A stretch of 62,130 nt of DNA. Source: Girardia tigrina. Lineage: Eukaryota. The notes under the pieces were generated by a model. It did not search any database. It saw nothing but the letters and a program-made list of their open reading frames with translations, and was not told the origin of the DNA. The translations under genes and the position numbers were made by a program. The stretch is from NCBI GenBank assembly GCA_001938485.1, contig MQRK01198378.1, positions 1 to 62,130 on the forward strand, given 5' to 3'. Below are positions 43,471 through 48,357 of this stretch, in pieces. The number at the start of each line of letters is the position of its first letter. Positions within the stretch are counted from its first letter, which is position 1.

Positions 43471-46400
43471 TTTTTATTCACGAATTCAGCGCAATAACAC
43501 CCCTCACACAAGACAAAACGATATTATGCTCATCGATTTATAATATTCTATACGAAGCACTTCAAAAACGAAACGCCAAAAATTTTATTTAAATTTCGAA
43601 TAAACAAATACGCGCAAGAAAACAAACAATAATTTGATTTAATTACTTCGAACGAATAAATCGATTTTTTACATTAAAATTTTTTTACAAAAAAAAGCAA
43701 ATCGATTTTCATGAAATTAATTTTTACAAAAAAAAATAATTGATTGACATCAACAAAAATTTAATTTTTAATAAAACTTAATCAAAGTTTTCAAATTCCC
43801 TTAAGATAAAAATTGAGTCAAATATTGATTCCGAAATTGTTCGTTTTAATTCAATTTGGAATTTGAATAAATTATTTTTCTTCACATTTTTTTCGGATAA
43901 AATTAGATAGAAAAAATCAGAATTTCAATTTCATCCATTTTGATGGTTGAAGATCATTAAATTTACGAAGAATTAGTTGTCCGAATTTCAAAGATTCTTT
44001 TACACATTTTGGTTCAATAACAATTTGTGAAATAAATTTCGAAAACTCAATTTTAGTGGAAATTCTGTATTCACTTAAATTAGAATATAAAAACAGCAAT
44101 ATTGCTTGATAAAATTCAAATGATAAATCTTATTATTGCACAATTTTCTTAGATTTCTTCTTAATAAATTCAAATTACAATCAGAATTAAAAAGGATAAA
44201 CAAGATATGTAAACGAATATTTTCAATGCAATTATAATTATCAAGACCAATGTTTCACCGATTGACGTTATTAATCCGCTATTGATCTCCACTTTCGTAA
44301 ATTTTCTCTTAAATTTGAAGACAAATCAACGAAATTCTTGATGGCATTTTCAATTTTGATAACATTATTTTGATTCATTTTTAAACATTCGAACACAGAT
44401 TCCATGTCACCAAACTCCTCTTCTTCTCCAGGGTGATTTAATAATTAAAATGTATCTCAAAAAATCCTCCCCCTTCTGATCAATCATGATCAGAAAAATC
44501 AGTCATACTTCCAAAATTAAAACGAACTAACAATCATTCCATTAAAGTTTTTCCATCATCATTCCTTGTTTTCAATCATACACTTTCTTTAAATCCATAT
44601 TTAACAGTGTCAAATAAATTCACATACTTTCCATAAAGATACAATTAAATCTTTTTACAGTCTGATAACATTCAAACAATTAAATAACATTCACATAAAG
44701 ATAAACAATAAAACAAACATCCTCTTGTTTAAGCATTATTCTCAGGATTCTAAAGGGTACACCCGTCCCACAAAGCGGAGCACCTCCCCCTTCCAGTCTC
44801 CATCAGAAAAAAACTCTCGTTCTGATCTGAACCAGATTTCAAAACTCGCCCAAGACTCTGTTTTCTCCAATTCATACATCAATCAACTTTCAAACATTAT
44901 CTTCGTATTCAATCTCTGATTCTACATGTTTTAATTGACTCTGTTACTGATTGAGCTCGCCTTCGTCATTATCTTGGCGGGAGTCTTTTCTTCGATTATG
45001 TTTTTTTCTGAATTTCCAATTTGGATATGGTTCCTGCCTCCAGACTCTTCCATTTACTTCCATTACATTAAACATCACCGAAATGTATTCCATGCATAAA
45101 TTCCTATTTTCTATTTCCAAAATTTCATCTATTTTGTCACGTAAACCATTTTCTCTCAATTTATCAAACAAGTTACTTGGTTCTCGTTCTACCATTCACC
45201 ACGAATTTTCATCAACATTTAATGATCCGGTTTTATGATCAAATTTATTCGTTCCAATCGATAATACATCCAACAGTAGCTTGTTACTTATTGTATAAAG
45301 ATTTTCATCTTGATTGATGCATATCTTTTTAACATCATCTACCAATTTCACATCGACGTCTTTATATTTCTTGATTACTTTCTCTCTTGCAATTGCCACC
45401 TCCAATGGAGCAAATATATCTTCTTTTCTTTTGTGAAACAAAATTGGCTCCAATGATTTCTATTCGATTACTATCGTCTGCAATGATTTTATCCAAAGTA
45501 TTAATTGTTCCAATTATTTCCAATTCCTTGAAACTTTTATAATCATCATCCTGATCTGCTCCTGGATTCTTGAAGAATTCTGGAGAGCTTAAATTTTCAT
45601 TTAATTCAAATGCGATAACAAATTTTTCTTTAATTACATCATCTGAATTCATTTCTCCGTTAAATCAAACCATATTTGAAATTCTGAGAATCAATATTAA
45701 TTAAATTTTCTTTCCAAGCATCTTTAACATTTAAAAATTTCGATTCTTCTTACCCAACATTATCATTCATTGTAAGATTTTCCTATTTCGATTTACATTG
45801 AATAAAATCGCCATTGTCAACAATCTCAACCAGGTTCTCGATTTACAAACCATTGAAAACTTTAAAACAATTATTCAAATTGTCGTCTGTCGTTAATTCT
45901 TCCGCCTCATCAAATAAACATTTAATATTTACCATATTTTCTTTCAAAATATTTCTTTGTATTTCCTCTTCTTTCGTTTTATCTTTATCATCTAGCTTCA
46001 CAACCGTTTCATCAACAACATAAAATATTTTCTTTTTTTCTTTTTAATACACGTGTTCATCAATTTTCCAATTTTCCAGGAAGTTCTCTTTTCATTTCTC
46101 AAGCATTAACACTTTCGCTCGTAGACTCCTTGGACACAAACAATCTCCATTTATCGAATTTAAGTTCTGGTATTATATCTTCATCAATATTTTCAGAAAC
46201 ACCTCCCGAACTATCGATCAAAAACCTTTTTTCTCAGTACCACTTAGTGATGAGTCTCTCGAGTTTAAGATTATCGATTTTTGTTTTTCAAATACTTCTT
46301 CATTTTTTAATTCAATATCGTCATCTATATAATTTTCAATTTTAGCTTCATCAAGACCCTTCCAATGTTCCAAAGAATTTATTTTTTAATTTGATTTACG

Positions 46401-48357
46401 TGCAATCATCAAATTATTTTTAACCATATTTTCAATTCCTTTGAATCAGGGAGAGTATTATCCGACATATCGACATCTGTGCTTCTGAACATCCATTCAC
46501 AACTCAAAGGTTCGATAAACTTTTCTAGAGCTTCCGGTTCAACAATTTCTCCCCCAACTTTTTCAATATCTAAACACATCTCGCGTGACTCCAATTCTAA
46601 TATTTTCATTTCATTAAAATTCAATTTATCTTCCACCATCTGCTCAAATATCCACAGATAATTTGAATCTTCACTTTCACCACTTGCTTCCTCATTTAAT
46701 GTTACATTTTCTTTTACGAACGAATTCTTTTCAAAAAATTCTAACGTCTCCTTCGATTTATCCATTAGTTCATTTTCTTTTAACGTTTTAAATATATCTT
46801 TTCTTTTGTTCATTTCATTTAATTTAGGATCTTTTGCTTTACTTTTTACAAATTCTTTGAAATTTAGCCTTTTAGTTCTTGTTAATTCAGGAGCAATATT
46901 TTCTTTCATATCATCGATTCCGTTTTGGATCAACTCTTCACTGTACAACGACTCCATAAAAGCTTTTAACTTTGGAGAAGTTTCAATTTTAGCCCGACGC
47001 TTTTCATTGCTTGAGACGATCCGCTTTTTTCTATCATACGTCTTTTCCAAAGTTCAACAGCTGTCTTGAACGCTCCTTCCTGGATTCTAAAATATGCGAT
47101 CAGAGACAACGCTTCTCCGAACAAACTTCGACGTAATAATAAAAATTTCTGTGTCTCGAACATTTTACTTTCTTCCAGACAAACTTCGACGGACGCGCCC
47201 ACTATTGATTATTTTAATTATGACCTCCAAACTTAGGCACCTCTAGGGGTTTTAATATACTTTCCATATCATCTTGATTTGTTTCCCATTTTTTTGAATC
47301 CTTTTTCGAAAACTTTTTCTCTTCCTTTATATACGATTCAAAAATTTCTTGGAACTCGTCATATTTTTGTCCGATTTCGTTTATTTCTTTTGCTAATTTC
47401 AAACTTTCATTCTTGTGATCCAACTCTTTTCCAAGCATTTTGAGATTCTCAAAGCTCTTCATTGCTTTCTCTAACTCCTAATATGCTTCGTAACAGCTCT
47501 GAGACCCCGGATGAAATTTCAGTTCCTCCAACACCTGATTTCTTCGGCGTGTTAAATTTCTCTTCCAGACTGCTTTCTTTTCTTTCTTTTCTTCCCATTC
47601 TTCTTCCAAAGTATCCTTTTTCGCAGAATCTCGATCACTGCCTCCTCGTAGTCTTATAACTAAATGGAGCGTCGAATCCTTTTGAATGTTGTAATCCCGG
47701 AGAGATCTGCCATCTTTAAACTGCTTCCCAGAGAAGATGAGTCTCTGTTGGCTTGGTGGAATTCCTTCCTTGTTCCGGATCTCCTCCTTGACATCCTTCA
47801 TTGAATAGTCGGACTCTAACGTGATCGTCTTCCCCGATAGGGTTCTGATAAAGGCTTGGAATTGAAGAACTTCGATCGGATCGGGAAAAGGATACTCCCC
47901 AGACAATCCCCAGCTAAACCCGTACATACAAACATCACTCATAGAGCTCTGAGAGGTGAATCGCGCCAGGGTGCTGGGCCCATTATTTAAACGGGCAATT
48001 CATCACTTAAGACTCGATCATAATCGACACAAACCCTGGCGCCGATGGTTGAAAATCCCACTAATCAAATTTAACAAGATTCCCTTTAAACATGCATCCC
48101 TCAAAAAATTTAATAAACACCCCAAATAAAGGCAGTCAACAAAAAAATCATTACTACAAAATTCTCCATCAGGAGGAGGACATTTTGACATAAAACATCA
48201 AATCCTTGATTCCAAAGACAACCCGCCGTCATCAGAGCGCCGCAATCACGCTCTGGTACCAGAAATGATAACAGAGTGGGCGCAGGACTCGCCCGATTGC
48301 AGCACGCTGGTGTTTTGAGGCGGAATTCGGGTCGCGGGGAGGAAAAATTTTATTTAT
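43471..48357 (-). mobile_element. Unclassified insertion with a ubiquitin-fusion ORF
   Basis: Interrupts the piggyBac ORF; flanked by ATTTC (43466-43470 / 48358-48362); GC-rich structured 5' end; minus-strand AATAAA at the 3' end. Confidence 0.65.
44742..47942 (-). pseudogene. Ubiquitin fused to a ~1000-aa K/E-rich protein, disrupted
   Basis: [79 protein letters not shown]..., followed by colinear minus-strand ORF pieces down to ~44742. Confidence 0.8.

Follow-up and report, generated by a model that had tools for sequence, protein, structure and literature searches.

An insert that interrupts a decayed piggyBac transposon in Girardia tigrina, within the 62,130-nucleotide (nt) stretch of contig MQRK01198378.1 analyzed here (the window), is almost certainly a dead, internally deleted, nonautonomous copy of a BEL/Pao long terminal repeat (LTR) retrotransposon. 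Its family carries ubiquitin fused to the front of Gag, and the explanation taken as a whole, a dead BEL/Pao copy from a family whose ubiquitin-Gag would be cut by host enzymes, is quite probable. A first-pass annotation, made from the letters of the window, had described a nonautonomous mobile element with a ubiquitin fusion, and this is borne out, with the Gly-Gly end kept and Pol deleted. It had left the element unclassified and had named longer copies belonging to a known family as the observation that would speak against it; the longer copies are BEL/Pao, and relatives carry Gag, protease, reverse transcriptase (RT), Pao RNase H, and integrase. The genome assembly is AT-rich and comprises 1.43 Gb in 255,254 contigs; L numbers denote loci fetched from the same genome. 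The insert and its host consist of the following features.

41909..49203 (-): decayed piggyBac transposon hosting the insert (TTAA, inverted termini, DDE_Tnp_1_7, relative L071)
43450..48342 (-): whole insert, a deleted BEL/Pao copy (ends accurate to ~6 nt)
48266..48342 (-): last ~80 nt of the 5' LTR, ending ...TTATCA (75 to 83% identical to the 3' ends of solo LTRs L008, L010/L220, L214, and others)
48246..48261 (-): primer-binding site, pairing at 14 of 16 nt with the 3' end of the initiator-type tRNA-Met(CAT) of this genome
47862..48245 (-): leader from primer site to ubiquitin, frameshifted in the window and an open frame in intact relatives (ratio of nonsynonymous to synonymous substitution [dN/dS], ~1.0)
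47640..47861 (-): ubiquitin ending LRGG (Pfam E value, 2e-21)
47040..47639 (-): N-terminal third of BEL/Pao Gag, including the start of DUF1759 (E value, 0.005; Gag homology)
44860..47040 (-): lysine- and glutamate-rich (K/E-rich) filler in place of the remaining Gag and nearly all of Pol, common to other deleted copies
44673..44810 (-): last codons of integrase and start of the 3' untranslated region (DNA match to L162)
44467..44477 (-): polypurine tract (from sequence; 87% match to L162 over 44505-44461)
43450..44465 (-): first ~1.0 kb of the 3' LTR (84 to 92% identical to solo and other LTRs)
43473..43478 (-): AATAAA, candidate polyadenylation signal in the LTR, 23 nt ahead of the insert end

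The relatives establish the family. In L119, ubiquitin, DUF1759, and a zinc knuckle lie in a single frame of 601 amino acids (aa), followed by RVT_1 and Peptidase_A17; L158 has protease and rve besides, and L162 has rve and DUF5641. The order in relatives is ubiquitin-Gag-protease-RT-RNase H-integrase, and the Pol order of protease, RT, Pao RNase H (Peptidase_A17), integrase, and DUF5641 is found in L119, L113, L158, and L162. Gag with DUF1759 and zinc knuckles is present in L119, L158, L116, and L106, and the Gag piece of the window is homologous to these: its first ~200 codons past LRGG are 36 to 48% identical to the Gag of RT-bearing relatives, and its DUF1759 match fails the curated cut-off. 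Among database relatives of the Gag-protease region, DUF1759, RVT_1, or Peptidase_A17 is annotated in 10 of 11, ubiquitin in none of the 11. The window copy retains both a primer-binding site after the 5' LTR and a polypurine tract before the 3' LTR. The primer site of relatives is complementary to the 3' end of tRNA-Met(CAT) at 16 of 16 positions (the tRNA genes are in L174), and many family copies start directly after the tract at 44477-44467. BEL/Pao elements typically duplicate 5 bp of target; four solo copies (L008, L220, L214, and L227) have TG...CA ends and 5-bp duplications, which identifies the repeat as an LTR, of 1.2 to 1.9 kb. The window copy has LTR pieces only, without TG...CA ends. 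The 458 exact matches to the primer site are not a count of the family; other subfamilies share the site.

Several side observations concern the wider family and its primer site. L154 and L160 form a deleted subfamily with CCCH zinc fingers after DUF1759 instead of Gag knuckles, and host fragments also occur internally (peptidase M1 in L168 and CUX1 in L018). The LTR end at 48266-48290 could pair over ~15 nt, with one bulge, with the 5' end of the tRNA-Met that also binds the primer site, a possible extended primer contact. Near position 1444 of L172 (C173671), the sequence past the family primer site is complementary to almost the entire tRNA, as if reverse transcription had continued through the primer. 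L189 to L192 (C21274) are four primer-site motifs ~340 nt apart, as if a very small LTR element were arrayed in tandem.

The single long, broken open reading frame (ORF) reported earlier is confirmed, with at least 8 frameshifts and >10 stops, and no intact gag and pol are present in the window copy, in which Pol is replaced by filler. Recognizable motifs do follow the ubiquitin, contrary to the initial description: besides the start of BEL/Pao Gag, the tail of an integrase is preserved. Positions 44787-44673 match the end of the L162 integrase (70% DNA identity; E value, 2e-5), and a tyrosine-recombinase reading of the motif at 44.8 kb was rejected in favor of this match. Pfam gave no match in three frames of this integrase-tail piece (~44.8 kb). 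The K/E-rich region between Gag and integrase is read as filler that evolves like noncoding DNA, its dN/dS of 0.62 to 0.74 compared with 0.57 to 0.69 for the noncoding LTR control, an estimate that is pooled against single references and includes decay after insertion. It is common to several deleted lineages, in frame in some of them, and has no homologue among 7995 scored candidates. CFAP58, suggested by Atlas (score 0.91, low recognition), was not accepted as its identity, being a generic coiled-coil lead. L105, L106, L112, L115, L116, and L049 form a separate nonautonomous lineage that retains Gag and protease and has in-frame K/E filler between protease and DUF5641.

The host piggyBac is bounded by TTAA and inverted termini at 41905-41908 and 49204-49207 and is collinear across the insert. 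Its transposase remnant is cut in two, with Pfam DDE_Tnp_1_7 matches on both pieces, in agreement with the original description of a split piggyBac ORF. The bounds first proposed for the insert, 43471..48357, are displaced to ~43450 and ~48342. On the left, solo LTR L008 matches the window at 30 of 30 positions as far as 43450, and solo repeats L008, L010, and L015 all match up to this position and then run into different sequence. On the right, the piggyBac relative L071 (73% identical) matches the window inward to ~48342. The insert thus delimited lacks most of the 5' LTR and the final ~0.8 kb of the 3' LTR, and it is multicopy (60 matches; 40 scored of 1379 candidates). The ATTTC copies previously taken as a 5-bp target duplication lie at 43466-43470, within the LTR, and at 48358-48362, within piggyBac, and are therefore not a target duplication. 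The 17/23 inverted repeat is real, a score of 17 being reached in 0 of 200 shuffles, but both of its arms are LTR-internal and nine LTR-bearing relatives score only 11 to 15 of 23, mostly at other positions; it is therefore not a terminal inverted repeat. Conserved terminal inverted repeats with a target duplication, the hallmarks sought for a DNA transposon, were not found at the true ends.

Both junctions are crossed by read contigs from two runs of one study, by 24 to 30 nt with 0 to 2 differences; the overlaps are shorter than the 31-letter bridging standard, and one run may be the source of the assembly. The contigs then stop inside the insert ends, as expected at repeat edges. None of the read-contig joints skips the insert among the 15 listed of 21, and for an empty piggyBac site, one distant relative only covers the junction.

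The ubiquitin of the window copy, preceded by the short leader as first annotated, is diverged (74 aa with a 2-aa deletion; 48 of 73 aligned positions identical to host polyubiquitin), and its LRGG is intact. A 110-aa query of ubiquitin plus linker found ubiquitin and Gag in one frame in 150 of 150 scored matches, duplicate contigs included (2622 candidates), at 48 to 100% identity. Among 63 distinct ubiquitin ends in the fetched loci, two of which belong to a subfamily whose frame across the primer site is different, 52 have Gly-Gly and 40 the exact LRGG. G75 is constant in 58/63 and G76 in 56/61, compared with 60/62 and 54/58 for the core residues F45 and I30; lysines K48 (56/62), K11 (52/54), and K27 (55/57) are also kept, and K63 is found in 30/63. 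Ubiquitin is under purifying selection in the family, as judged from dN/dS values of 0.16 to 0.32, close to those of Gag (0.21 to 0.30) and Pol (0.20) and against the noncoding LTR control given above. Eight element ubiquitins are 61 to 96% identical to host polyubiquitin, and in some subfamilies the protein is 96% identical to that of the host at only 75 to 85% DNA identity.

In eight loci, a partial ubiquitin stands ahead of the whole one, an arrangement that points to polyubiquitin mRNA as the source. Gly-Gly is present at 0 of 8 upstream junctions and at 8 of 8 Gag-side junctions, although these loci are related copies with shared ancestry and near to one event. The features of a cleavable fusion are all present in sequence: a ubiquitin fold, Gly-Gly, and a next residue other than proline. 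A homologue query that contained ubiquitin was swamped by polyubiquitins, with DUF1759 in 0 of 119 matches. In a representative library, one of the best 150 matches spans ubiquitin and Gag (P0158, JGI/IMG, a single-member cluster); in it, ubiquitin is joined to DUF1759, and it is 60% identical to the window frame over 129 aa.

Intronless fragments of host genes lie in the LTRs, upstream of the LTR tail, and differ among copies. By Pfam, the cargo in a frame that crosses the primer site comprises Vac14, PRMT_C, HR1, 14-3-3, Tubulin, Metallophos, and AD+SH3, and further LTR cargo comprises LIM, TPR, FGGY_N, and STI1 DP. The VAC14 cargo is without two GT-AG introns of the host gene (L225), includes the host start codon, and occurs in dozens of copies (41 matches, 40 scored); its dN/dS of 0.23 includes host-gene exons and was not used. 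The 5' and 3' LTRs carry the same cargo types. In several copies, cargo and ubiquitin-Gag are linked across the primer site by one open frame, 1118 aa long in L154 and 993 aa long in L155. A sample blind to frame was taken from the first 30 listed of the 458 primer-site matches, of which 29 were distinct, 6 were dropped for short flanks, and 23 had at least 400 nt upstream. At least 80 open codons were found upstream at 10 of these 23 primer sites, compared with 2 of 23 in antisense and 8% of random window points. In the subfamily with the different primer-site frame, cargo adheres to that frame as far as ubiquitin (L235 and L196).

In L237 (C223367), the cargo of the two LTRs differs, with VAC14 in the 3' LTR only, through recombination or misassembly. 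A candidate promoter, with TATA-like and GCGCGAAA-type motifs, lies directly ahead of the VAC14 cargo in L227, L228, and L208 and at ~43600-43620 in the window; the GCGCGAAA-type motif is presumably E2F-like.

The ubiquitin ahead of Gag probably serves the family as a cleavage site for host deubiquitinases, which would free Gag, and release of this kind fits the family data. The product so released would be Gag, in place of the novel ~1000-aa K/E protein envisaged at first. Transcription would start within the LTR, ahead of the captured fragments, translation would reach Gag only via cargo and leader, and captures that keep the frame would be retained. A cut after Gly-Gly would give Gag a fixed N terminus, usually Ser, whatever precedes it, and leader and cargo would need only to remain open (dN/dS, ~1.0 and 0.59). 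Capture probably occurs by template switching in the first, strong-stop cDNA step, which would copy new cargo into both LTRs. No RNA data set was listed as holding the window stretch. A broader view of the clade can be put forward tentatively, at somewhat less than an even chance: the LTR would be a translated, exchangeable slot for host mRNA and the captured ubiquitin an insulator cut by the host, such that capture costs Gag nothing. Cargo, leader, and ubiquitin would be released with a free Gly-Gly end, and the resulting continuous in-frame domain shuffling could yield by-products that act on host pathways.

A number of observations weigh against release by host deubiquitinases and against translated cargo. 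In the set of ubiquitin ends, 11 of 63 lack Gly-Gly or are unreadable, which may reflect decay. Gly-Gly is no more constant than the fold core, and selection on the fold alone could therefore keep it. The list of cargo is biased, as L152 to L171 were chosen for long open frames. In the frame-blind sample, whose copies are related and not independent, an extended open frame upstream is missing from 13 of 23 primer sites, and of the 15 sites that allow two frames, only 11 have the same best frame on both sides. The L235 frame runs through 33 masked codons. Finally, the LIM-TPR cargo carried by LTRs of the same type as that of the window does not share a frame with the tail in either L008 or L010, and its dN/dS of 0.59 lies at the neutral baseline; older copies, including the LIM-TPR LTRs nearest to that of the window, are broken and uninformative on frame.

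Ubiquitin might instead act while attached or as a regulator, by boosting expression or folding, setting Gag turnover, or recruiting ubiquitin-binding machinery, with cleavage incidental. The purifying selection on the whole ubiquitin, the subfamilies at 96% identity to the host despite DNA divergence, and the retention of K48, K11, and K27 would suit such a role, and engineered ubiquitin fusions at the Gag C terminus can promote particle release (PMC2958808, accessible text). However, Gly-Gly is kept on the Gag side and lost at the upstream tandem junction, and LRGG is still kept in other subfamilies whose ubiquitin is down to 61% identity. Linear ubiquitin fusions with an intact Gly-Gly are normally cut rapidly, which also counts against this role and leaves it unlikely. 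Alternatively, the cargo frames may stay open only because this spares the RNA from decay or leaves ribosomes a free path, with Gag translated from its own downstream AUG and ubiquitin a single old capture. The leader and the LIM-TPR cargo show no amino acid constraint, the leader contains Met codons, and upstream frames are broken in many copies, as this would predict. Ubiquitin, unlike cargo and leader, is strongly constrained, however, and the same junction with Gag is found in copies that are 48 to 100% identical; initiation downstream of a relict ubiquitin is thus quite unlikely.

Two further alternatives concern the insert itself. An element of a novel class, bounded by terminal inverted repeats and an ATTTC duplication and encoding ubiquitin joined to a functional 1000-aa protein, could draw on the inverted repeat that exceeds 200 shuffles and on a K/E region that lacks a homologue and has open frames in some copies. 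It is scarcely credible, as both ends are LTR pieces accompanied by primer site and polypurine tract, the inverted repeat is unconserved, the K/E region evolves as noncoding DNA, and the RT-bearing relatives with full BEL/Pao Pol already refute it. The permuted arrangement of the window copy might instead be an artefact of an assembly in 255,254 contigs, given that no read contig covers the whole insert and the junction overlaps are below 31 letters, but contigs of the two runs extend past both junctions and the piggyBac parts on either side are collinear; misassembly is very improbable.

The BEL/Pao copy consists of the LTR tail, the internal part, and then the first kilobase of the LTR, a permuted arrangement that was not seen in any other fetched copy. 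The absence of TG...CA ends and of a 5-bp duplication suggests that it entered piggyBac without integrase. Capture of an end-trimmed DNA at a break has about an even chance of being the route. The other candidate, a 5'-truncated copy of the element RNA, is credible though held a little short of even. The layout with truncated LTRs would fit collinearity with the RNA, and the insert ends 23 nt past AATAAA. This AATAAA, noted from the start near the 3' end of the insert, is present at 43478-43473, at the same position in 7 of 9 relatives and as ATTAAA in one more. Such evidence is weak, because the L008 LTR contains 10 hexamers of this type and the coincidence of one with the insert end carries little weight. 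The lack of a poly(A) tail and of a clear target duplication also argues against a standard processed copy. Processed copies of HERV-W have truncated LTRs collinear with the element RNA, a layout that the window copy may share, but they have a poly(A) tail and a 5- to 15-bp duplication, neither of which is found in the window copy (PMC5016936). At the junction, at most 3 nt (AAT) are shared and up to 10 nt may have been lost, as judged from one 73%-identical piggyBac relative.

Comparisons with known systems refer to the accessible text of the papers cited. The family shares with BEL/Pao elements at large their LTRs, the order Gag-protease-RT-RNase H-integrase, and the Pao peptidase domain (PMC3118150). 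It differs in the ubiquitin ahead of Gag, a word absent from the main text of that paper, and in LTRs of 1.2 to 1.9 kb compared with 0.2 to 1.2 kb, a greater length that is attributable to host cargo. LTR-mediated retrocopies formed by template switching include partial spliced host mRNAs and multigene chimeras that were later amplified, with Pao BATUMI and BEL18 among the examples (Tan et al. 2016, PMC5131818). In those, the retrocopy replaces internal ORF sequence between the LTRs, whereas the cargo of the present family lies in the LTR, upstream of the primer site, and often in frame with ubiquitin-Gag. Foreign-RNA capture is shared with eBxnv-1, a nodavirus gene captured by Bel/Pao; unlike the family, it is single copy, with cargo between the LTRs and no ubiquitin in the main text (PMC5177903). 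The giant Gypsy elements of planarians termed Burro are likewise LTR elements that have captured domains resembling those of hosts, a ubiquitin/SUMO-like motif among them, but they exceed 30 kb and have an N-terminal Gag and an internal ubiquitin-like motif, whereas the family is of ordinary size, with true ubiquitin before Gag (PMC6431247). The Pao-type domains and the position of ubiquitin thus separate the family from Burro.

The closest functional parallel is found in cytopathogenic pestiviruses, in which captured host ubiquitin with extra N-terminal residues lies in the polyprotein, host ubiquitin hydrolases cut it, and the next protein obtains a defined start (PMC8310069). These are sporadic insertions in RNA viruses and are experimentally shown, whereas in the family the trait is fixed and selected in a retrotransposon clade and cleavage is predicted. 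Captured ubiquitin used for processing, as in pestiviruses, would in the family have become a stable and selected trait of a retrotransposon. The literature covered, which excluded most subscription papers, repeat databases, and supplements, yielded no account of ubiquitin-Gag or of in-frame cargo within the LTR, and the accessible text of PMC8532177 held nothing relevant to the architecture. The window copy itself is a dead relic, and the significance rests with the family. A fixed ubiquitin-Gag with in-frame LTR cargo would explain in concrete, testable terms how a retroelement might withstand gene capture on a massive scale, and the family illustrates a route to multigene chimeras in animals. 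In addition, many scattered host-gene fragments in the G. tigrina genome may be solo LTRs of this family.

Three other features of the window lie outside the insert. Positions 8631-11851 (-) hold an integrase remnant (rve and Integrase_H2C2) and then an intact frame of 699 aa with ankyrin repeats and a hydrophobic C-terminal stretch, which suggests an LTR element with an additional ORF that may be env-like. Positions 24981-26777 (+) encode a broken protein-primed DNA polymerase B with an Endonuclease_7 match, presumably the combination seen in Polinton/Maverick elements. A foldback element at 50008-50348 has 163-nt arms that are 91% complementary, separated by a 15-nt spacer.

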